Shown: positions 11,760-61,894 of the stretch, piece after piece
Numbering within the stretch: the stretch's first letter is position 1
How the letters are laid out: every line of letters begins with the position of its first letter
Assembly: GCA_951406725.2 (NCBI GenBank)
Contig: OX597828.1
Coordinates: forward strand, 25,420,001 to 25,484,000
Length of the DNA: 64,000 nt
Reading direction: 5' to 3'
Origin: Octopus vulgaris
Lineage: Eukaryota
Notes under the pieces: model-generated
Seen by the model: the letters and a program-made list of their open reading frames with translations, nothing else
Database searches by the model: none
Told to the model about the DNA's origin: nothing
Translations under genes and position numbers: made by a program

Positions 11760-12800
11760 AAGCTTAGGTCAATTGCTGCGCGCTGTAAGAATTCAAACGA
11801 GGTTCTTCAGCAATGGAAGCAGCAAGAAATATTTGTTCTGTCTTTGTAAATGAAGCTTCAAGTGTCCGAACATGACAACAGTGGTTTGACTGGTTTCGTT
11901 CCAGAATTTTTTCTCTTGAAGATTCTCATCGATCTGGATTATCAAGTTCGGTCAATGCTGAGCTTCTGAAAATCAAAAGAAAACTGTGCAAGAATTAGCA
12001 AAACAGTTCAATTCCAGTAACATTTCGATCCTGAAATATCTTCAGGTGCTTGAAAAGGTGTCTAAATTGGTAAGTGGATCCTTCATCATCTGACCTGACT
12101 GATTCTCAGCTTAATCAGAGCTCCTGCTCGTCATTCAAGAGTAGACTTGCTGCCGAACCTTCCCGGGCAGACTCGTCACAAGTGAGGAAGGTTCCCTGAA
12201 ATCATATCCAATGAAATCGACAATGGTTAGCACCGACTGAAAGAGGCGAGTTGATTTCTAAACCCGAGATGTATCCGAAAAAAGTGTTAGGTGGAATATA
12301 CAAAGGTGCCGTCTATCATGAAATATTAAACCAAACCGAAATAATTAACGTGAAGTATCGTTGTCAATTGGAAGCAATCCACAAAAATTTGCTGAAAAAG
12401 CGCCCATCATTGGTCATTCTTAAAGGAGCATTACTCTTAGACGACAATGCGAGACAATATATTGTCCAAGTCAGACAGGAAAAGATCCGTGGCACTAAAT
12501 ATACAAGTGTTGCCTCATCCTGCCTACTCTGCCGACCTTGCTCCACGTGACTATCATCTTTTCAGATTATTGTGATGTTATTTACAGAGAAAAATTGTGA
12601 AGAGATTAAAAAGGATTTTCTATGTTTCGAAACCTGAATCATTTCATGCTTTAGGGATCAGCAGTTTGCTAAGCAGATGGGATTATGATGACAATCATAA
12701 TGGGAAACAGTATCAGGATTAGATAGATCAATTAAGACCAAAGAAGTATTTGTTTCTATTCCATCTTGAAACGCGACACGTCTTTCTTTCCAACCTGAAA
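11760..12800 (+). mobile_element. Decayed mariner (D,D34D-type) transposase
   Basis: EFKRGSSAMEAARNIC...QQWFDWFRS...SLEDSHRSG; KW-I-L-H-H-L (WVPHEL-like); KPEMYPKKV; LLLDDNARQ (HDNARPH); HPAYSADLAPRDYHLF (YSPDLAPSDYHLF); many frameshifts. Confidence 0.88.
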
Positions 12801-17190: not shown

Positions 17191-18271
17191 GACAATCATA
17201 ATAATACTCAGAGTTTCAAATTCTCAGAGTTTCACACTCCTTTACTCCCCGTAGTTACCTTTAATATAGGTAAATATTTCTTATCATTTATAGATAGACA
17301 CTTTCCAGTAAATCATAAATATAGGAAACTCTTTAATAGGCAAAGCCTAAAAATTAACTTTAGTTCAACCACAAATTTTAAAAATATAATTACACACAAT
17401 ACACAAAAACAACAACATTAAGCCGACTGTTCCTGTAGAGATAAAGACTTGGGCCCGCTGAGCTTGCATGACTGAGATCATCATTTATGAAGCCACTGTA
17501 GATTCTACGACCGCTAAGGTAACAGTATCGTCAAAGAAATATGTGAGTCTCACAGAGGAAAATTTAAAGCTAGATTTAATAATCACACCTTGACCTTCAG
17601 ACCCTGGGATAAAATAAAAATGACCAAATTATCCAGTTATATATGGTCTTTAAAAGAACAAGGTGTCAGCTATAAGATTCACTGGAAGATCTTGGCCAAG
17701 TATAAACCTTACAGCAACGGCAGTGGAAAGTGTGGTCTTTGCGATATGGAAATATGACTCATTTGGAAAAAGTTCTTTAGATCTCACTACATGTCTAAAT
17801 TCAAAAACTGAACTTTTTGGGTCATGTCCATATATGACAAAATACTTGTTACGTCCCCCCCAAGATCACAGATAGAAACTGCTTTTTATATTATGTTCAT
17901 GTACAAGCCTTTCATATGTCTTAACATTTCTTATATATTTTTTATTGGTTTATATATATAGTTTTTGTATATATTTTTCCCACTTTTTTCAATTGTGTGA
18001 CTGAATACGCGTGTAGTATTTGTATGTATAAGCATATATTAAATGTGTATGCGTGTGTATGTGTATATATGTGTACGAATGTATGTACATACGCTTGTAT
18101 ATCTGCAGCTGTAGGTCTGTTGAGAGATAGGAGGGTGTATATATATATGCACCTCTATACATATGTATATATACATGAATATTCATGTTTGCAGCGAGTG
18201 TGAATATAAACGTATGAGTGTACATATATGTATACATTTTATGTTTGTGTATGTATATGCGCTCGTGAGTT

Positions 18272-18662: not shown

Positions 18663-18962
18663 TTGTGCGTGGTGCATGTATGTATATACACATGTCTGCT
18701 TGAGTGCGTACGTATGTATATTTTATGAACGAAGATTTTTATCTTTATGAGTATGTGGTTGCGTGTATTTTTATAATTCAATATATTTTATATCTTTTAC
18801 TTATGTTTTTCTATGCCTATTAGAGTAACTTCCCTTTGTTCAACGGTGTTTATCATAGCGTTTCCTGTTTTAATAACTGATGAAAAATGCCTGGAAGCTC
18901 TCATCTCCGGAATTTGAAACTCTGAGTATTATTATGACAACTTACTGGTTGTCCATCCAATA
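17184..18962 (+). mobile_element. Penelope-like element 3' portion (Naiad-type GIY-YIG endonuclease, pLTR with hammerhead), with inverted termini, inserted in (TA)n
   Basis: 17420-17875 reads CSCRDKD...CMTEIIIYEATV...KYVSLTEE.FKARFNNH..TF...TKLSSYIWSLKE...IHWKILAKYKPYSNGSGKCGLCDME...LNSKTELFGSCP, with frameshifts; 28-bp inverted repeat 17196-17223 / 18910-18937. Confidence 0.85.
18871..18934 (+). ncRNA. Minimal type-I hammerhead ribozyme motif
   Basis: Helix I TAATAA/TTATTA; core CTGATGA; imperfect helix II; GAAA; helix III ACTC-T-GAGT; GTA cleavage triplet at 18926-18928. Confidence 0.75.
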
Positions 18963-33478: not shown

Positions 33479-34254
33479 TTTTAAGGCTACAGCCAGCCAT
33501 TCAGTTGAGACTTACAGCACCATCAACAATCATGAACAATGTTATCATGCAATGCCTGTGCAAGAAGATATTTTTTTTAAGTGAGGAAAGGCTGTGCACT
33601 GAATCAATCCCACTCACTAAGCAACAGCAGCCATAATCCGAAAAGAAGAACAAGTCGACATCATCGGTAACCACTGAGCCGCAGGTTTTATGTCGGAGTT
33701 ATCCCAGTTACCTGAGTTACCTTCTCGTAGAAGGATGCCCTAACAAAGGCTAGGAGTCATTCACTCCAAATGGTTTAACTGCGCGATCGGGTATTCAGTC
33801 CGATTATTTCTGTCCCCGTGCATGATACAGCCTTAAGCCATAAGAAGAAAAAAATTACACTTTTATTGGATGGTTGTTGTCTCTCAAGAGTTCCTCCGCC
33901 CTCTGATGGGTTTCGCTTTTCGTCCCACAGAGTGTCCAATAAACACCCTCCTCACCGAGCACGCTTGGTGGTGTTGCCGGTTTAGTCGCCGACGGGCCGA
34001 CCATGCAACAGGTTGTACTGGGTTACATGTTACCAGTAGCACTCGAATATATACACATACATATCTATATGTATATATATAGAATACATACATACATACA
34101 TATGTATATATACATACATATATATATATGTTTCTGTATATATATATATATATGTGTGTGTGTGTGCGTTTGTATGTATATATAGGTTATGAGAGGTAAT
34201 GGTGTCAGGTAATGCTATGAACAGACTATAGTTAAACTCCAGGTTCCGTTATTT

Positions 34255-35748
34255 AGGTAGATGCACCGCCATTTGCGACACTGTTATTACTGAGAGCCTC
34301 CTAAATATGTGGCACTTGGTGAAGAGTTTGATGTAGCTACTCTCATTGTAGCTACCCTCTTGCCGTGAGGTAGGTTGTTCTGGGAGTCTTGACAGGAAGA
34401 GGTTCAGCTTTGATTTAAAAACGCCTACATCTAATTTGTGCAGATTCCTCAGGCTCTTTGGGAGAATATTAAGAAGCTGTGGGCCCCTGAACCCAGGCTG
34501 TTGCAGTATTTTCGATAATCTCCCACGTGATGGCGTTGCTGGGATCTTTGGCACTATGCAGCGTCATCCCGTTCTGACAATGGTGTAGCTTTCAATGCCA
34601 AAATTTGGCACAATTCCTTCCAGAATCTTCCAGATGTATATTACTGCATACCTCTCCCGCCTTCTCTACAGGGAGACTGTTTCAACCTTTCCCAGTAGCT
34701 GAGAAATTGCAAAGAGACGATCTTGTTTGTGAATCTTCTCTGGATTGCTTCAAGGTCCGCTGTTAATTTCACACTGGTGGGTGACCATAGCTGTAAGCAG
34801 TAATCCGGGCGGCTGAGGACAAATGTCCTCCAGAGGACCACAATGGTTTCCTTATCTCTGGTTCTGAATGTTCTTGGGATCCAGCCAGCCATTCGTCTGC
34901 ACTTTGTCGCCATCCAGATAAAGTGCACGTGGAAAGAGGTTCTGTATTTTCTGCGAGACTTTCGTATCATCTACGTAGCTTGCCAGAGTGGCTATCCGGG
35001 CACTTGAGGGCATATCTGAGAGAGCCACTATAAAAAGCAGTTTTCATAGAGATGGCTCCATTAGCCACTACTGCCTGACATCTATCTTTCAGAAAGTCAT
35101 GTAACCACTCACCAAGTTTTCCAGCTATGCCGAGATCACGCAGTTTGTGGCATATCATACCACGATCCAATTTATCAAAAGCTTTTGCAAAATCAAGGTG
35201 TATTACGTCCACATTTGAGTTGATGAGTAACTGCCTCAACACTCTGTCATAATGTTGTAAGAGCTATATCAGGTAGCTCCTACCTGGTCGAAAGCCATGC
35301 TGGGTATCACTCAGCAAGTTATTTTCATCAAAGAATGCGATTAGTTTCCCTCTGTCTGTTCGCTCCATGACTTTGCTAATATGTGGAGTCAGAGAGATAG
35401 GCCTATAATGTTTGGTATCTGCTCTGCTCCCCACTTTATGGATTGGACATATTATTCCCTCCTTCAGCTTGCTTGGCTATCTGCCATTTGTAAGAAATCT
35501 CAGGAAGAGAATCTGGAGGGGTATTGCTAGGGCATGCTTACACGCTTTGAGGAGAGATTTCAGGGTAACCATCAGGACCAGCAGTTGAGTTTGTGTCAAC
35601 TTCATCTGTGGCTAGTAGTATATCTTCTTCGCTAATGTTGATGTATTCCATCGTAACTGCCTCGCTGGTTGTAGGGGAGGCGGCAAAGAAGTCCACTGGT
35701 TCGTTCACTTGTCTGTGTCCCAACGGGGTGGTAAAGACTTTTGAACTG
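34255..35748 (-). mobile_element. CR1/L2-group LINE RT fragment, decayed, with internal deletions
   Basis: [66 protein letters not shown]; same family as 45471-46757. Confidence 0.92.
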
Positions 35749-35878
35749 CATATGTATATACATACATACATACATATATATATATATATGCATATGTATA
35801 TACATACATATATATACATACATATGTATATACATACATATATATACATACATATGTATATACATACACATACATACA

Positions 35879-35937
<59 letters not shown>

Positions 35938-36041
35938 AAATATAAGAGAGTTAACGTTAAATAGGTCAACTCTAGTGCTAGAAATAGCTCCGTATTCTGG
36001 TATTGCCGCCCGTGTAGGTCTGATAAATTGTATCAATGACA

Positions 36042-36120
36042 AATGTTGCTGATGATTTATAGATATATATGTGAGTATAATTTGCATATTATATTGATAA
36101 AGAAACAATTGTACAACATT
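36042..36120 (+). ncRNA. Minimal type-I hammerhead ribozyme motif
   Basis: Helix I AATGTTG/CAACATT (7 bp); CTGATGA; helix II TTTAT...ATAAA; GAAA; palindromic helix III ACAATTGT; GTA site at 36111-36113. Confidence 0.85.
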
Positions 36121-36388
36121 AATCTACTTTTTAGTTGTATTTCACTTTCCTTACGTTGAAGGTAGTGCTATTTCTATGTGGAGGTATCGTCGGCGGCTAT
36201 ACCAGAATACGGAGCTATTTCTAGCACTAGAGTTGACCTATTTAACGTTAACTCTCTTATATTTACGGATAAATATGTATCGTCTCCCTGGTTTGTTATG
36301 TGCTAGGTCGCTTGGTGTTAAACTAATGGTATTATTAAATTAATATCTAATTTTTCACCCTCATTTTTGAATATATATATATATATAT

Positions 36389-37140
36389 ATATTATTTAAA
36401 GGATCATAATAAACAATTTGATTTGGAATGGAATATTCTATCTATATCATTTCCATATGATAAAGGTAAATCTTTTTGTTCGGTTTGTAACTATGAAATG
36501 TATTTCAGCCTGTTTTCAGTTAATCCCCTTGTAAACACGTTTATAGAACGCGTTTATCGTTGCAAACATTGTCAAAAACATACCTTTAGCGATTTCTACC
36601 ATTCTATAAAATTTGACCTTTGACTGTCTTCTTACATTTCACTTCCACTAAATATATCTATTTCCATGCCTTTAAGCTTTATTCCTATTCATATATCGCT
36701 CTACATCTTTCCTCTATTTGTTTTCTGTTAATTTCTTTCTTTCTCCTCCTTTTTTTATAGACTACCTTTGCCGTTATATCTATTAACGATTTATAAAAAA
36801 AAACTTGCCTGCATTCCCGTCATCATATACGCAGTCATCACATTCTGTTAAAATGTCTTACTAATGTGTATGGCTTCCTTCTTTCCCTGATGAGAAGATT
36901 ACATTGTTTTACATCATTTTATTCTTTCTGGAATATTACCAATGTTTACTTCGAAACATATGTCGGAAGTAAAAATATTTGAATAACTCCTGCATTTAAC
37001 TCTATTTATTTCTCTATGCTAAACAAAAGCATTTCACCAAAACCTGGAATTAGGCTGTTACATCCTTGGTACTTGTGTGAATTTTTGCTACCCTGGTAAC
37101 TATTTATTTGTTTTCCGTTTTATTTGTAAACATTGAAAAA
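36389..37140 (+). mobile_element. Penelope-like element 3' end (Naiad-type endonuclease C-terminus plus pLTR) in (TA)n
   Basis: YLKDHNKQFDLEWNILSISFPYDKGKSFCSVCNYE...LVN...CKH parallels the LK..Y.I.W.IL...PY.....CxxC..E...LN.....C pattern at 17650-17850 and 51760-51960; carries a hammerhead. Confidence 0.8.
36882..36969 (+). ncRNA. Minimal type-I hammerhead ribozyme motif
   Basis: Helix I TTTCC/GGAAG; CTGATGA; helix II GAAG..ACATTG/CAATGT..CTTC with G-C closing pair; GAAA; palindromic helix III ACATATGT; canonical GTC site at 36962-36964. Confidence 0.88.
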
Positions 37141-37314
37141 ATACACATACATTTATACACACAAACACACTCATATATATATACACAATCATACACACAT
37201 CATATACATTTCATAGTTACAAACCGAACAAAAAGATTTACCTTTATCATATGGAAATGATATAGATAGAATATTCCATTCCAAATCAAATTGTTTATTA
37301 TGATCCTTTAAATA

Positions 37315-37375
<61 letters not shown>

Positions 37376-37384
37376 TACATATCT

Positions 37385-37505
37385 AACAAATCCATTCACA
37401 AGATTTGGTTAGGCCGAGGCTATAGTAGAAGACACTTGCCCAAGGTGCCACGTAGTGGGACTGAACCCGGAACCGTGTGGTTCGTAAGCAAACTACTTAC
37501 CACAC
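37385..37505 (-). mobile_element. SINE family D head
   Basis: gctatagtagaagacacttgcccaaggtgccacgtagtgggactgaacccggaacc. Confidence 0.88.
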
Positions 37506-43346: not shown

Positions 43347-44990
43347 TTACATCGCGGATGTAGATGGCTGTGGATCATCAACATCAACAGCTGACTCTGG
43401 CTGTTCTTGTTGTTCGATGCACTTAAAAAACCAGTTGAGAGCTCCTTGAACTGTCTTCTTTTCCTCAAGGATTAGATAAGGAGCAAAAGCTTCGTGACAA
43501 GCCCCCACAACCTTGGAAAAGCGTTGAGCATTTGGATCCATATCCTCGACCTTTTTCGATACATGTAAATGCTTGCTGCATTTTCTTAATGGTAAAGTGA
43601 CGCGGCTCGGGTTTGTCTTCCTCTTTTTCATTTTGCTGCTCGTGAAGTTCTATCAAATCCTCGTTCGTCAGGGTCTGCTTGTCTTTTTCAAATAAATCTG
43701 TGAAATCCTCCTCCAAATCCATTTGCGTTTCTTTGTTCGTAGTCACCAACGTTTTGTTGATGGCAACATTATCAAACCCCTTAAAATCATTCGCGAGTTG
43801 CGGGCAAAGCTTCTTCCATACACCATTCTTAGCCGTGCTCTGTACATCATTCCATGCCGCTGCTATGTTCTGTACAACCTTGTAGATATAGTATCTCTTC
43901 CAAAAGTCACGAAGTATGATGGACTCGTGAAGATCAGTTACAGCTATTGCTTGCCGCAACGTACGCTTCATAAAGTAACGATTGAAGATAGCAATTATTC
44001 CCTGATCCATTGGCTGCAGAAGAGACGTGGTGTTTGGAGGGAGGTATACAACGGTAACGTTGGGGTCAAAGCCTACGATGTTTTGCGGGTGGCCTGGAGT
44101 ATTATCTAAGTAAATCCTTGAAAGGAATTTCCTTCTTACAGTACTTCTCTGCTGCAGGGATAAAATGACTGAAGAACCAAACTTAAAATATAACAACAAC
44201 AGTAACACATGCTTTTGAATTAGCCATCCAAATAACAGGGAGAGATGCTTTGGGTATGTTCTTCAGGGTACGGGGTTTGTATGCATGATACACAAGCAAT
44301 GGCTTTAACTTAAAATATCTTGCACGATTACCTCCCAACACAATGATCACACGTTCTCTTGTTTAATGCATTAGGAAATTCCGCTGCTGCTTGTTAGTCA
44401 GCTGATACACTTTCACCTTGCTTCTTAATGGAGTGATATCTTCTTTGCTCCTTGAATCTCATGAACCATCCTTGACTTTCCTTGAACTCTAAATCTTTCT
44501 TATCTGGATATTTTTCTTCAAGTCTTCAAAGACAGCATTTTCTCTTGAATGATTTTTTTTACTAATAGTAGCACGCTGACGATTCAGTCTAACAATCCAA
44601 AGAGAAAGAAGAATTTCCATTTCTTCAAAGATTTTGCCTCTTTTCTTATTGATGACAGTGTTCTTCATCCCTGGGGCTTCAGATTTGGTATGTGCTAAAA
44701 TCTTGTCCTTATAATGTACAATCGTCAATACAGTTGTGCAACTCATCCCAAAAGATCGTATAATTGCTACCACTTTTTCACCTTTTTCATGGCGTTCTAT
44801 CATAGCCAGTTTATCTTCCAGTGTTATAACATGACGCTTAGCATTTTCGCTATGAATTTTCTTTGGAGCCTTGGGGGCAAAAAATAAAGTCACAAATGAA
44901 TGAGAATGAAAAAGTAGCCGATAAACAGACGTAAACAAATCTCAATTCAAAACAATCGCGGGAATCACGAGTGACAACGACGCCTAACAG
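43347..44990 (-). mobile_element. Decayed Tigger/pogo (TIGD1-like) transposase
   Basis: CENP-B N-terminus KRHVITLEDKL...FGMSCTTVLTIV; FKESQGWFMRFK; KLKPLLVY; LDNTPGHP; YLPPNTTSLLQPMDQGIIA (DDE_1); frameshifts and deletions. Confidence 0.92.
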
Positions 44991-45261
44991 TAGATATTGA
45001 AACTACAGTGCAATATAAGCTCTGAAAGACCGATAAATAAGACAACACGGCTGATTTCAGGATTTCATTCACTAAGCTACATTACTTTATGGTGTGTATC
45101 TTAACATTTACTGCACGTATTTTAATATGATTTTATATGCCTTTATTCTTATTCATTGTACAGTAACATGGTTCTATGTGCTTTTAACGGTCTTCTAGTG
45201 ATTTTACGTTTCCAATATTTGTGGCGGACAGACGTAAGATCGAATAAAATAACTTAGCTTG

Positions 45262-45307
<46 letters not shown>

Positions 45308-45314
45308 TTATATA

Positions 45315-45366
<52 letters not shown>

Positions 45367-45411
45367 TTATATATATATTTATATATATATATTTATATAT
45401 ATATATTTATG

Positions 45412-45464
<53 letters not shown>

Positions 45465-45470
45465 GTATAT

Positions 45471-46757
45471 ATGTTGCAAGACCCAGCTCCTACAGCATTA
45501 TGACTGGGTGTTGAGGCAGTTACTCAACAAATCAAATGTGGACGTAATATACCTTGATTTTGCAAAAGCTTTTGACAAGGTGGATCATGGTATGATATGC
45601 CACAAACTGCGTTACCTTGGCATAGCTGGAAATCATGGTGAGTGGTTACATGACTTCCTGAAAGATAGGAGTCAGGCAGTTGTGGCTAATGGAGCCGCCT
45701 CTAAGAACACACAAATAGTGAGCAGTGTTCCACAGAGCACTGTCTTAGAACCACTGCTTTTTGTAGTAGCCCTCTCCGATATGCCTTCAAATGCCCGGAT
45801 AGCCACTCTGGCAAGCTATGCAGATGATACGAAAGTCTCGCAGAAAATACAGAACCCCAGCGATGTTGCACACCTGTAGCAGGATTTGGACTCAATTTAC
45901 AGATGGGCTGAGGATAATAATATGCAGTTTAATGCTGAAAAATTCCAAGCCCAGCTCTACCAGCATCCAAAACTGAATATGAAACGTACAGGGTACACCG
46001 ATCCATAGGGAATTTCAATCCCAGAGCGTAAGTCAGTGAAGGACCTGGGTATCGACATGAGTGATGATACCTCTTTCCAAGTGCACATTACCAGGATGGC
46101 GACAAAGTGCAGACGAATGGCTGGATGGATCCCAAGAACATTCAGAACCAGAGGTAAGGAAACCATGATGGTCCTCTGGAGGACATTCGTCCTCAGCCGC
46201 CTGGATTACTGCTCACAGCTATGGTTACCCACCAGTGTGAAATTAACAGCGGACCTTGAAGCAATCCAGAGAAGATTCACAAAGAAGATCGTCTCTTTGG
46301 AACAGCTCAGCTACTGGGAAAGGTTGGAACAGCTAAGACTCTACTCCTTGGAGAAAAGACGGGAGAGGTATGCAGTAATATATACCTGGAAGATCCTGGA
46401 AGGAATTGTGCCAAATTTTGGCATTGAAAGTTACACCAATGCCAGAACGGGCCATCAGGCTCAGGACCAGTTACTGCAACAGCCTGGATTTCAAGGGCCC
46501 ACAGCTTTTTAATATTCTCCCAAAGTGTCTGAGGAACTTGCACAAAGTGGATGTAAGGGTTTTAAAATCAAAGCTGGACCTCTTCCTGTCGAGAGTCCCA
46601 GATGAACCTACCTCACGGCAAGAGGTGCAAATGAGGGTAGCTATATCAAACTCCATTCTTCACCAAGTGCCACATATTAGAGGAGGCTCTTAGTAATAAC
46701 AGTGTAGCAAAACGGTGGTGCGTCAGCATGGTCGCAGCCCTGAGCTGAAACTAGAGG
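45471..46757 (+). mobile_element. 5'-truncated CR1/L2-group LINE (RT through 3' end)
   Basis: [72 protein letters not shown]; in-frame stops. Confidence 0.95.
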
Positions 46758-51489: not shown

Positions 51490-51965
51490 TGATAAAAGAT
51501 TAGACAGTTTTTACAATAATAAAAATAGTAATCCTATTACAGAGAATGATTTAGCCAGAAATTGTGATTGTTGATATAAGGATAAATGCTATTTTAGTAA
51601 ATTTTGTTTGCAAAATAACATTGTATATAGATGTAGGGTTGAATCGGACGAAAAATATTTTTACAAAGGGTAAACGGAAACTTTTATTAATAAACGAATC
51701 GCAAAACATGAGTATACCTTTATGACTAGGGATAGGTTTAACAGTACTAGCCGGAGTAAACAAATTTGGAAATTGAAGGATAGTAAGAAATTATATACCA
51801 TAAATTGGAAAAATACTCAGTCATGCTTGATCGTACAAAATTAATGATGCTAGTTGCAACCTATGTATAGATGAATTAAATCAGATATTAACATCTACGA
51901 AGAAATTACTTAATGAAAGACGTGAGAGTGTTTTATCTTGTATACACTATTCTAAATGTACTTAG
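51490..51965 (+). mobile_element. Penelope-like (Naiad-type) GIY-YIG endonuclease fragment
   Basis: NCDC*YKDKC....CLQNNIVYRCRV....YFYKG*TE....RIAKH..TF....NSTSRSKQIWKLKD....INWK...CNLCIDE...LLNERRE....CIH. Confidence 0.85.
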
Positions 51966-56010: not shown

Positions 56011-56718
56011 TGGTTATATTTATCGTGGATCAGTGCTCAATCTTTATGTTGATCTTACTTTAATTTATTTACAGAGCTCTCCCTTCCATAATATACGTAT
56101 ATAAGAACATTAATTTGTTAGTTACTGTGAATAATCCTCATTTAAGTCACTTCAAACTTAGTAATATTTTTCATATCCATTATTATAGCTTAACTCTATA
56201 TCTATGGGTTAATATAGGTTGTAGTTATTATAACCCTAAGTTTTTGTTCATATTTTTTTACGACATTCTCTCTCGGATAAATTACGTAAATAAACAGTAT
56301 TCATATTATATTCATATCAATAACTTTAAATAAGGAAGAGTTGTTATTTCCCAATATAATACTATATTATTATTTATAGTTATTACACGTTTTATTACCG
56401 TCTCTTGATTAAGTATGACCCTGATACTTAATTCATTTATATACTTATATATTGTTGTTGTATCGTATTAAAATAGCCAAAGATTGATTTCAGCCTAAAC
56501 GAATTTGGATTAATATTATTTGAGATATATAGAAAAATATTTCGATAGTTGTAGATTCTATTTACTTAATTATTTTGCCCGTTATCATTTAAAATATATA
56601 TATAATTGTTATGTAGTTGAAAAGTTACCGCTCACGCTCCTAAATATAGGTATATGAAATTAATTTTTTTGCAGTCTAGCCGTCCTGTCACATGGAATTT
56701 CTTCTGTCTTTTGAAGCA

Positions 56719-56801
56719 AAGCTCTGAAGAGACTTATATAAATGGATACGAATTGTTTGTAAAACAAGTAATATACATAAGTCGAAACAAATTGTTGGCT
56801 T
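56719..56801 (+). ncRNA. Minimal type-I hammerhead ribozyme motif
   Basis: Helix I AAGCT/GGCTT; CTGAAGA; helix II GACTTAT/ATAAGTC (7 bp); GAAA; helix III ACAA-A-TTGT; GTT site at 56794-56796. Confidence 0.85.
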
Positions 56802-56932
56802 GTTTAATTTTTTTAATAATTTATGTTATCTTGTATTATATTCATAGTATATTATGTTATATTATAATAGAAACAAATTATTAGAGTTAAAAAAAATTTG
56901 AATAGATAATTACTTAAAAAAAAATCTGTTTC

Positions 56933-57328
56933 GTGTGGTAAGTAGCTTGCTTACCAACCACATAGTTCCGAGTTCAGTCCCACTGCGTGGCACTTTGGGC
57001 AAGTGTTTTCTACTATTGTCTCGGGCCGACCAAAGCCTTGTAAGTGGATTTGGTAGGCGGAAACTGAAAGAAGCCCGTCGTATATATGTATATATATATA
57101 TATGTGTGTTTGTGTCTGTTTCTGTGTCTGTGTTTGCCCCCCCCCCCCCAACATCGCTTGACAACCGATGCTGGTGTGTTTACGTCCCCGTAACTTAGCG
57201 GTTCGGCAAAAGAGACCGATAGAATAAGTACTAGGCTTACAAAGAATAAGTCATGGGGTCGATTTGCTCGACTAAAGATGGTGCTCCAGCATGGCCGCAG
57301 TCAAATGACTGAAACAAGTAAAAGAGTA
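56933..57328 (+). mobile_element. SINE family D, near full length
   Basis: tRNA-like head, CORE-like tggcactttgggcaagt, short internal (TA)/(TG), tail ggtgctccagcatggccgcag...ctgaaacaagtaaaagagta. Confidence 0.93.
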
Positions 57329-57346
57329 TATATATACATATAAGAC

Positions 57347-57411
57347 GAATGACCACTAGGTGGACTCCTAATATGCATTTAGCATATTAGGAGTCCACCT
57401 AGTGGTCATTC
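57347..57411. repeat. Perfect 30-bp-stem hairpin with 5-nt loop
   Basis: gaatgaccactaggtggactcctaatatgc-attta-gcatattaggagtccacctagtggtcattc. Confidence 0.95.
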
Positions 57412-58329
57412 TTCTTACATGTATGTATGCATATATATATAAAATGAAGAAACACTTTTTAAAAAAGTAATTAGCTATTTAAATTCTTTTTGAACTCACA
57501 GAATATCACCAACATTTGCGGACGTAATTTCTGAAGAGTGTATATTTTGTGTACAATATGTATTTCGTGTGCGAGCGCTTTCGGTGTTTAACTTTTCAAA
57601 CACACATATTCCAGGTAAATTCCTAGGGAAGAAGTTGTTTTTAGTAATGGTGTTGAATATTACCGTTTTAATGTGGGATTTAGAATTCTTTTAACCTTTT
57701 TTTTTTTTTGCTTTTCGCAGTCGGTCATTTTTATCTTTGATTTTGTAAAAGATGATGGAGCACCATCTTTAGTCGAGCAAATCGACCCCATGACTTATTC
57801 TTTGTAAGCCTAGTACTTATTCTATCGGTCTCTTTTATATATACATATAAGAGGAATGACCACTAGGTGGACTCCTAATATGCATTTAGCATAGAGAGAG
57901 AAAGGAGGAAGGAGAGAGGGAAAGTGTGAGAAAGATAGAAAGGGAAAAGCTAGAGAGAGAAGGAGAAGGAGAGAAAGAGAGAATGGAGACAGAAAAAGTG
58001 GAAGAAAGATAGAAAGAGAAAAAGCTAGAGAGAGAGAGAAAGAGGAGGAACAGGTTTGGCTGCTATTTCTTGCATGTTAGGCGACTATGTAGAGGTCATC
58101 TCTGTAGTTGAAATTATGGTTGTTGTTGTTGCTGTGTTGTCCTAGGTCAGTCTTGATTCGCCGAACGTATTATCAAAGATCTTCCTGGTTTGGTCTCTCA
58201 CTATTCGATCCAAATGGTTTCTTTTACGCTAAAGACAACAGTGCGTGTTTCAGGGAGACTTGGTTGTTATTTCTAGCAGAGTGTGCAATAGGCTTGGGTC
58301 CACCTCAGGGTTTCGTAACTGCGATGTTC

Positions 58330-61104: not shown

Positions 61105-61643
61105 CAGTGGTTGGACAAAATAATGGAACCATGTAGCATCATAATTTTGAAATATCTATAAAACTGTCAAAAGCTTGTTTGTGTTTGTTTTTTGATTTAT
61201 TATTGGTGTTGCTTAATATGCTTTGCTAAAATTGCTGTTTCTTTTCAGATATCACCAGAAAAAGGTAATTAAAATTCATTAAAATTACAGGTTTGTCGGA
61301 CTTTCAAAGAGGTTAAATTGTTGGTATTCGTATGGCAGGCGCTAGCGTAACGAAAACAGCTGAAATGTTTGGTGCATCAAGAAGTACTGTCTCGAAAGTA
61401 ATGACAGACTTTGAGAAAGAAGAAAAAACGTCGAAACAAAACTCCGGAAGAAAACCAAAACTTTCAGATAGAGACCGCTGGATTTTTACGCGAATTATTA
61501 GAAAGAATCACAAAAGTACAGCTCCCAAAATTACTGCAGAGCTTAATGACCACACCGAGAACCCAGTTTCCACAAAAAACTGTTCGCCGGGGAGCTGCAC
61601 AAAGCTGGATTTCATGGGAGGGCTGCAATCAGAAAAACCACTA
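61105..61643 (+). mobile_element. 5' part of a Tc1-like element
   Basis: CAGTGG start; LSDFQRG*IVG..MAGASVTKTAEMFGASRSTVSKV...SGRKPKLSDRDR...TAPKITAELN...VSTKTVRRELHKAGFHGRAAIRKPL (one frameshift). Confidence 0.9.
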
Positions 61644-61894
61644 AATATATATATATATATATGCGCTCACACACACACGCACAGACATATCCACACAATC
61701 ATGTTTTGTTTATGAAATCTTTCGTTCCTTGTCAAATGCAATTTCTATTAATTTCTGGTAACATAAAAGCGCATGCGCTCTCTTACACACATCCTCTTAC
61801 AAAAACGCACATACACACACACGACAATAAATATATATCAATATCTATTCCTTTTTTCAATTATCTTCCATCGTTCTACCTTGTTACATAACTG

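Follow-up and report, generated by a model that had tools for sequence, protein, structure and literature searches.

Two candidate hammerhead ribozymes (HHRs) lie on the same strand of a 64,000-nt stretch of DNA, hereafter called the window (positions 25420001-25484000 of contig OX597828.1, from an animal genome of 2.8 Gb), and each is flanked by the arms of a long inverted repeat. A preliminary description of this locus proposed a double-hammerhead cassette in which a read-through RNA would be cut at both ribozymes. Does the arrangement represent one device, or a set of independent parts that happen to be neighbors? We consider it highly probable that the locus consists of the ends of two different Penelope-like element (PLE) families, likely inserted at different times in one TA-rich tract, together with a 115-bp inverted copy of the 5' end of the second element that was likely added later by local repair.

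The locus and its parts

Both inverted repeats are present where they had been described (all positions are those of the window). The arms around the first ribozyme, HHR1 (35931-36010 and 36192-36271), differ at 1 of 80 positions, and those around the second, HHR2 (36389-36503 and 37204-37318), at 0 of 115. A descriptor scan for type-I HHRs, which had been proposed as a check, covered both strands of the whole window. It recovered HHR1 (core at 36049, helix I of 7 bp, predicted cleavage after 36113) and HHR2 (core at 36887, helix I of 5 bp, predicted cleavage after 36964), both on the plus strand. The predicted fragment between these sites is 851 nt long, in agreement with the approximately 850 nt given earlier.

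Because the scan was run without a shuffled control, it is the copy counts of the two families that argue for HHR1 and HHR2 as genuine motifs. The exact 3' motif of the unit 1 hammerhead (19 nt) has 175 matches in the genome and that of HHR2 has 1338, and the reversed controls have 0 in both cases. A search of the whole window against Rfam at the gathering threshold gave 0 matches. When ranked by E-value, 17 matches were returned for 35900-37400; these were mostly TA-repeat noise, and none was a hammerhead.

The features of the locus are collected in Table 1. It had been stated that the two units are separated and bounded by (TA)n. This holds for the sequence between them, but the right bound of unit 2 is a degenerate CA/TA microsatellite with no clean (TA)n run.

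Table 1. Features of the double-hammerhead locus, in window positions
Feature	Positions	Strand	Basis
(TA)n/(CATA)n tract, left target flank	35750-35930	.	sequence
Unit 1 inverted copy; outer end is the family short 3' end (equivalent to 36271)	35931-36010	-	79/80 vs 36192-36271
Unit 1 direct copy, 5'-truncated (about M130-493 of the 493-nt monomer)	36007-36372	+	family comparison
HHR1, type-I, long helix II, 2-bp palindromic helix III, predicted site after 36113	36042-36120	+	
Unit 1 "tail", ~100 nt from short to long 3' end	36272-36372	+	family ends
(TA)n spacer: unit 1 right flank and unit 2 left flank	36373-36392	.	sequence
Unit 2, old 5'-truncated Hydra-like PLE copy (ORF end, pLTR, tail)	36393-37157	+	family comparison
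C-terminal end of PLE GIY-YIG ORF with stop codon	36396-36623	+	match to P0001
HHR2, unit 2 pLTR hammerhead, predicted site after 36964	36882-36969	+	
Unit 2 "tail", ~150 nt from short to long 3' end	37008-37157	+	family ends
Degenerate CA/TA microsatellite, unit 2 right flank	37158-37203	.	sequence
Orphan inverted copy of 36389-36503 (unit 2 5' end and TA junction)	37204-37318	-	115/115
(TA)n tract, right flank	37319-37368	.	sequence

Elsewhere in the window, the same scan returned two more type-I hammerhead-like motifs on the plus strand with helices I and II paired (56717-56802 and 18870-18935; scan sites 56724 and 18877), whose sequences are unrelated to HHR1 or HHR2, and a weak hammerhead-like motif at 34813. 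Fragments of other PLE families at 17230-17763 and 51521-51947 (plus strand) match the endonuclease region of the PLE proteins P0001-P0003. A broken non-LTR RT fragment (34200-35750, minus strand; motifs DFAKAFD and YVDD) ends at the TA tract that holds unit 1. The open frames scanned in the window belong to transposon families only. DDE_1 and CENP-B_N transposase pieces occur at 43468-44941 (minus strand), and RVT_1, Transposase_1, and HTH fragments at 45253-45876, 12215-12547, and 61317-61712, respectively (all plus strand).

Unit 1 is a young non-coding hammerhead element

A DNA search with unit 1 gave 1114 first-look candidates, and the closest other copy among the best 40 that were scored is a 98% match. 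The window copy has 0 private differences in 363 columns. Tandem loci define a monomer of 493 nt, in which the longest stop-free frame is 76 aa, and 55 PLE-type proteins compared with this monomer by tblastn gave 0 matches. In 18 of 20 loci that include the monomer start, the monomer begins directly after the 3' end of the previous monomer, and the other two are inversion junctions. The unit is therefore closed, with no space for an ORF. At 14 anchors in tandem copies, the long end likewise runs straight into the monomer start.

Architecture was scored in 46 distinct loci, which remained after 13 of 59 had been dropped as duplicates of the same genomic place. For both families discussed here, the loci are a sample of top-scoring or motif matches with 1.5-kb flanks rather than a census. 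Head-to-head inverted copies are present in 29 of the 46 loci and partial tandems in 21, and tail-to-tail copies in none. Two alternative 3' ends recur, a short one equivalent to 36271 and a long one equivalent to 36372, and in 27 of the 29 inverted loci one outer end is long and the other short. Terminal ends run into (TA)n in 27 of 28 cases for the long end and in all 15 for the short end.

The window copy has this same layout. An inverted copy begins at the short end, as do the other inverted copies of the family, and joins a 5'-truncated direct copy with a tail of about 100 nt through a 4-nt overlap (36007-36010). As a copy of this dispersed non-coding hammerhead element, unit 1 is young and 5'-truncated, and its 80-bp "cage" is the standard PLE head-to-head inverted copy, which lacks the tail of approximately 100 nt.

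In published PLE anatomy, an inverted 5'-truncated copy lies beside the pLTR and a tail is found at one end only (PMC8557442, PMC3846280). Two internal start sites of the RT, with cleavage and extension of both strands of the target, have been connected with the tail (PMC11167929), and a bias for insertion into (TA)n or AT-rich sequence belongs to the same anatomy (PMC8557442, PMC3846280, PMC11167929). The likeness extends to tail-less head-to-head inverted copies, partial tandems, two fixed 3' ends, and an AT-rich target. The tails of the families described here differ in length, at about 100 nt for unit 1 and 150 nt for unit 2, compared with the published 30-40 bp.

The proposal that unit 1 is a non-coding, retrozyme-like, TA-targeting element is borne out by its monomer, its short frames, and its (TA)n ends. 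Judged by these features of its sequence, our verdict is that unit 1 would be a non-autonomous, retrozyme-like PLE parasite, bearing the PLE insertion signature without coding capacity. Non-LTR retrozymes have been proposed to be non-autonomous PLE derivatives (PMC7229834; bioRxiv 10.64898/2026.07.22.740005). Unit 1 resembles them in being a non-coding, low-GC monomer with a type-I HHR, and its family includes head-to-tail dimers with two same-strand HHRs. Six such same-family pairs, 443-494 nt apart, occur among the first 100 of the 175 motif matches, and one natural pair lies near C5:116128818-116129327 of this genome. In contrast to the retrozymes described in these sources, the monomer is at or above the quoted 150-450 bp, and the family consists of dispersed monomers and partial dimers with PLE inversions and tails rather than long arrays. 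The copy at the window locus carries one HHR only, and the element is known here from its sequence.

Another published parallel is provided by non-autonomous Chlamys PLEs such as MRC1 (PMC8557442), which are also non-coding and form pLTRs and head-to-tail insertions. These elements generally resemble an autonomous family at their 3' end, whereas for unit 1 no such partner was found by blastn against the unit 2 family and the relatives L061-L088. Because there is neither an autonomous partner nor similarity to unit 2 among the sequences compared, it is the anatomy alone that points to mobilization of unit 1 in trans.

Unit 1 could also derive from an autonomous PLE beyond the reach of our searches, of which it would be only the truncated pLTR end, given that most PLE copies are truncated and that the best 40 candidates were scored per DNA search. 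We regard this as unlikely. The long end in tandem copies leads straight into the next monomer and leaves no space for an ORF, and a tblastn search of 79 unit 1 loci with the 55 PLE proteins gave just two matches, each approximately 1 kb away and not joined to unit 1. No paper on the family was found in the literature searched, whose scope excluded most subscription journals and Repbase.

A sequence with an 83% match to the unit 1 tail forms the end of a different TA-flanked insert (L057:2741-2799), which suggests that this insert may belong to an older sister family of unit 1. The tail-like sequence lies near a unit 2 copy and is a separate insertion, with a SINE and TA sequence between the two.

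Structure of HHR1

An alignment of 38 of 41 HHR1 sequences shows pairing in 93.7% of cells; left out were L003 (identical to the window copy), L014 (truncated), and L106 (internal duplication). Double-sided changes occur at 5 of 25 pairs, and three of these are common, one in helix I (UA/CG 20/17) and two in helix II (30/8 and 19/15). There are 48 double-sided cells compared with at most 4 in slid controls, but the number of covarying pairs does not beat a shuffle (179 of 500). Part of the set was chosen by its 3' motif, which inflates conservation in that region. Given the common descent of the copies, the selection of some by motif, and a shuffle that is not beaten, the covariation provides good but not independent support for HHR1 as a conserved structure. 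Its helix III consists of 2 bp with a palindromic loop, a form described as needing a dimer (PMC4209133).

Unit 2 is the end of a Hydra-like PLE

A DNA search with unit 2 gave 3305 first-look candidates, among which the closest other copy is an 85% match (best 40 of 3305 scored). Compared with the family majority, the window copy differs in 60 of 769 columns (7.8%), and 30 of these differences are private. This places an old unit 2 beside a young unit 1. Other copies of the family continue upstream into RT and endonuclease sequence, and the window copy retains the last ~70 codons of the PLE endonuclease ORF; hence unit 2 is not ORF-free. Translation of 36396-36596 matches residues 711-777 of the 778-aa protein P0001, encoded at locus L079, with 72% identity (E 3e-25).

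The relative at L079 is intact and comprises an inverted copy, a pLTR, the open 778-aa ORF, and a second pLTR. Its ORF carries the motifs YRDD and IYQC..FYIG, and the equivalent 3' end lies approximately 50 nt before the next ATG. In all, 54 database homologs were found. Pfam gave a weak GIY-YIG match below the cut-off for another locus (L055; E 0.003), nothing meaningful for the two intact relatives, P0001 included, and only weak zinc-ribbon matches for the 77-aa ORF end in the window.

The unit 2 family has two fixed 3' ends, corresponding to positions near 37008 (short) and 37157 (long), and 17 of 47 loci are head-to-head (4 of 51 loci had been dropped as duplicates of the same genomic place). 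The window copy has a pLTR and tail, but no canonical inverted copy. By these sequence matches, unit 2 is the 5'-truncated end of an autonomous EN+ PLE, with the end of an RT/GIY-YIG ORF, a pLTR containing HHR2, and a tail.

The C-terminal EN+ PLEs of the Hydra clade and the marks that define them have been described by Craig et al. 2021 (PMC8557442). Like these elements, the unit 2 family is short (<3 kb) and has a single ORF with an RW motif of the RWK type, DKT, and an RT core containing YRDD, followed by a C-terminal GIY-YIG without CCHH and with CxxC and CxH around conserved E and N residues. It also shares a sense-strand type-I HHR near the 3' end, insertion at (TA)n, and an inverted 5'-truncated copy. 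The protein marks were read on P0001, whose DNA is ~70% identical to the window copy, and the clade call comes from motifs alone. In the supplement to the same paper there are Hydra families that target (TA)n and carry HHRs on the sense strand, and for one of these an inverted 5' copy is given. The Hydra HHRs listed there, the one cephalopod family included, differ from HHR2, whose helix II is long and whose loop III has 4 nt.

A further difference is the CxCx5C linker, which is present in 9 of 9 database homologs aligned and is replaced by an Asn-rich stretch in both relatives from this genome, P0001 and L080. Because the linker is absent from both, we call the family "Hydra-like" rather than a member of the Hydra clade. 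This linker has been associated with (TA)n targeting (PMC8557442). The ORFs that lack it (L079:1787-4123 and L080:2155-4509) are closely related to the unit 2 family, which still ends in (TA)n. In such linker-less Hydra-like elements, the AT-rich ends of the element itself may supply the pairing with the target.

Several related observations were made among the sampled loci. In the young intact family (L079:1459-1549, L081:4187-4277), the second position of the hammerhead core is C instead of U. A third hammerhead-bearing family (L065:1043-1710) has perfect head-to-head arms of 202 nt and the same helix III palindrome as HHR2, and this insert is likely very young. Another locus (L013:2453-3359) carries perfect inverted arms of at least 231 nt and an internal direct repeat.

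The right arm of unit 2

The right arm of the second inverted repeat copies the 5' truncation end of unit 2, including its TA junction, and lies beyond the tail and microsatellite. This second "cage" is outside PLE anatomy, in which the inversion arms are 3' parts that face outward, and its tail-to-tail orientation departs from the scheme given in the PLE literature cited above. Among the 47 unit 2 loci, tail-to-tail orientation was found in the window and in one internal piece of 33 nt, and the arrangement of the window was seen nowhere else. Throughout the genome, the inner 24-mer of the right arm occurs only in the two window arms when up to one mismatch is allowed.

The two cages thus differ in origin, the first being PLE insertion anatomy and the second a later, locus-private duplication. 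The canonical arms of five equally old unit 2 loci are 85-90% alike, compared with 115 of 115 positions here, and both private changes within 36389-36503 are shared by the two arms. If the arms were as old as the insertion, the chance of such a match would be about 1e-4 or less. The right arm has a 6-nt match at its inner junction and (TA)n at its outer one. Arm identity, the private inner 24-mer, and these junctions point to a recent templated insertion at a break in the TA tract, and the sequence comparisons make it likely that the right arm is a younger inverted copy, private to this locus, from repair at this break. Homogenization or gene conversion between close inverted repeats may have added to the identity, since in another old copy of unit 2 (L058:708-835 / 1501-1628), in which the inverted arm has a non-canonical end point inside the element, the arms are nevertheless 98.4% identical. 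This is a second case in which arms look younger than their element.

The fragility of TA tracts and short duplications made by MMEJ have been described for human cancer ecDNA (PMC13645644). The right arm shares with those duplications a short local copy, a fragile TA tract, and microhomology. It differs in that the event is deduced for a single germline locus and that the copy is inverted and was taken from 700 bp away. Elsewhere in the window, 57208-57292 and 57752-57836 form an 85-nt inverted copy (98.8%) of part of a neighboring non-PLE repeat, beside TA runs and a short palindromic duplicated piece, and this looks like a second local templated duplication.

Alternatively, the right arm could be a cDNA of an RNA that read through from unit 1 to unit 2, made by a PLE RT primed in cis at a TA nick 700 bp downstream. 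The geometry suits top-strand priming on a sense (+) RNA, with the 6-nt match at the inner end, and copying would have passed the 5' junction of unit 2 into (TA)n. PLE RTs can start internally and on both strands (PMC11167929), and at its inner end the arm looks like the AT-rich termini of unit 1 family members. However, repair from a DNA template yields the same product, the start site corresponds to neither of the two fixed ends of the family, and the copy at 57208-57836 is a comparable local inversion of a repeat that is not a PLE. We assign this explanation a low probability. Were it true, the read-through RNA of the preliminary description would exist, and PLE enzymes would copy neighboring transcribed DNA locally in inverted orientation. 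The same enzyme would then move unit 1, a 493-nt hammerhead RNA without a detectable link to the PLEs examined.

There is also a small but appreciable probability that the right arm is an assembly artefact, namely a fold-back chimera. Such an error would account for perfect arms that are flanked by microsatellites and unique to this locus. Conversely, the two arms have different TA runs next to them, and 700 nt of sequence between the arms is not mirrored. A contig from DNA run X1 matches with 0 differences and starts 30 letters before the inner end of the right arm, the point at which a 31-mer graph is expected to branch when both arms are present. This contig provides a weak hint, because it falls short of the 31 letters required for bridging and the assembly may itself derive from the X1 sample. 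Across 36393-37142, the contigs of four DNA runs are dominated by other copies of the family and none spans the stretch. Runs X2 and X5 have zero cover in the bin over the inner end of the left arm, which proves nothing. We retain a repair-derived right arm as the likely explanation.

The two hammerheads as a pair

In a double hammerhead, each helix I is formed between the 5' arm from one copy and the 3' arm from the other copy. The helix I halves of HHR1 and HHR2 have 0 bp of cross-pairing in both directions, as opposed to the 7 and 5 bp within each ribozyme. A hetero-dimer of the two is therefore impossible, and a circularized 851-mer would have no hammerhead at its junction. Moreover, the motif that spans the junction between unit 1 and unit 2 has one match in 2.8 Gb, which is the window itself, and at 29 other unit 1 loci no unit 2 sequence was found within their 1.5-kb flanks. 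Given the unique junction and the absence of a shared helix I, release of an 851-nt RNA would be incidental.

The possibility that the inverted arms act as a regulatory cage was considered and rejected on the basis of modeled folds. The model covers secondary structure only and ignores tertiary contacts, dimers, and help from proteins. In ensemble folds of the locus, the predicted helix I probability is at most 0.01 for both HHR1 and HHR2, with or without arms. Helix I of HHR1 has a predicted probability of 0.84 when folded alone, 0.00 in context without the arm, and 0.01 when caged, and so would already be lost before the arm is added. The probability of helix II falls from 0.88 to 0.04 with the arm. 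HHR2 is not predicted to fold as a hammerhead even when alone.

How surprising is it to find the two units side by side? A rough expectation of such neighbors within 1 kb on either side is ~2.6 when calculated from the 1114 and 3305 candidates in 2.8 Gb, and 0.17 when calculated from the exact-motif counts, both before any shared bias for TA is considered. Insertion at (TA)n is common to the two families, and (TA)n flanks their copies. A functional cassette that releases and circularizes an 851-nt RNA, with arms that regulate the ribozymes, can still draw on two intact motif cores on one strand, 851 nt apart. Nevertheless, the single occurrence of the junction, the lack of cross-pairing, the folding predictions, and the number of neighbors expected by chance make such a device very improbable. 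It is likely that known parts came together by chance in the "double cassette", which would then not be one device. The other suggestion made in the preliminary description, that two families are stacked at one TA site, is upheld, with unit 1 belonging to a non-coding family and unit 2 to a PLE, each with (TA)n ends.

Because their inverted arms have TA flanks, the two units might also be read as MITEs that bear terminal inverted repeats and target TA, an explanation whose probability we consider negligible. Arm length and the inner end vary among copies, one arm is internal and followed by a tail, and unit 2 contains the end of a PLE ORF. A MITE or other TIR DNA transposon was rejected because fixed terminal inverted repeats are absent and the architecture of the families refutes it.

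A proposed history

The stack of two PLE-family ends could have been assembled in three steps. Unit 2 would have been inserted long ago. Later, a PLE RT/endonuclease acting in trans would have cut the (TA)n at the 5' junction of unit 2, and unit 1 RNA would have been copied from both target strands, with the long end as the start of one cDNA and the short end as that of the other. The outcome would be the 80-bp "cage" of unit 1. Finally, a recent break in the TA/CA tract to the right of unit 2 would have been repaired by a template switch, in which 36389-36503 was copied in inverted orientation, aided at one junction by the 6-nt match and at the other by (TA)n.

We infer the order of these events, the mobilization of unit 1 in trans, and the origin of the right arm by repair. 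The report that PLE types do not cross-mobilize in the host studied in PMC3846280 counts against mobilization of unit 1 in trans. By analogy with other PLEs, each hammerhead would act as a same-family dimer or as a protein-assisted ribozyme, and any 851-nt product would be a by-product.

Implications for hammerhead-bearing PLEs

As a cassette, this locus is ordinary. It consists of PLE ends stacked at a TA tract, and PLEs that bear hammerheads abound in this genome. The useful by-product of its analysis is the unit 1 family, a young hammerhead element that has no ORF but carries the full PLE insertion signature. In the main text of the retrozyme preprint (bioRxiv 10.64898/2026.07.22.740005), the word "tail" is absent and "inverted" appears once, in a reference. 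The insertion signature therefore adds something small to the evidence.

Animal retrozymes have been proposed to be non-autonomous PLEs, and the insertion signature of the unit 1 family is direct genomic evidence in favor of this view. The signature also suggests that linear tandem templates are used for insertion. The natural two-ribozyme dimers of the family offer a ready test of monomer release and circularization.
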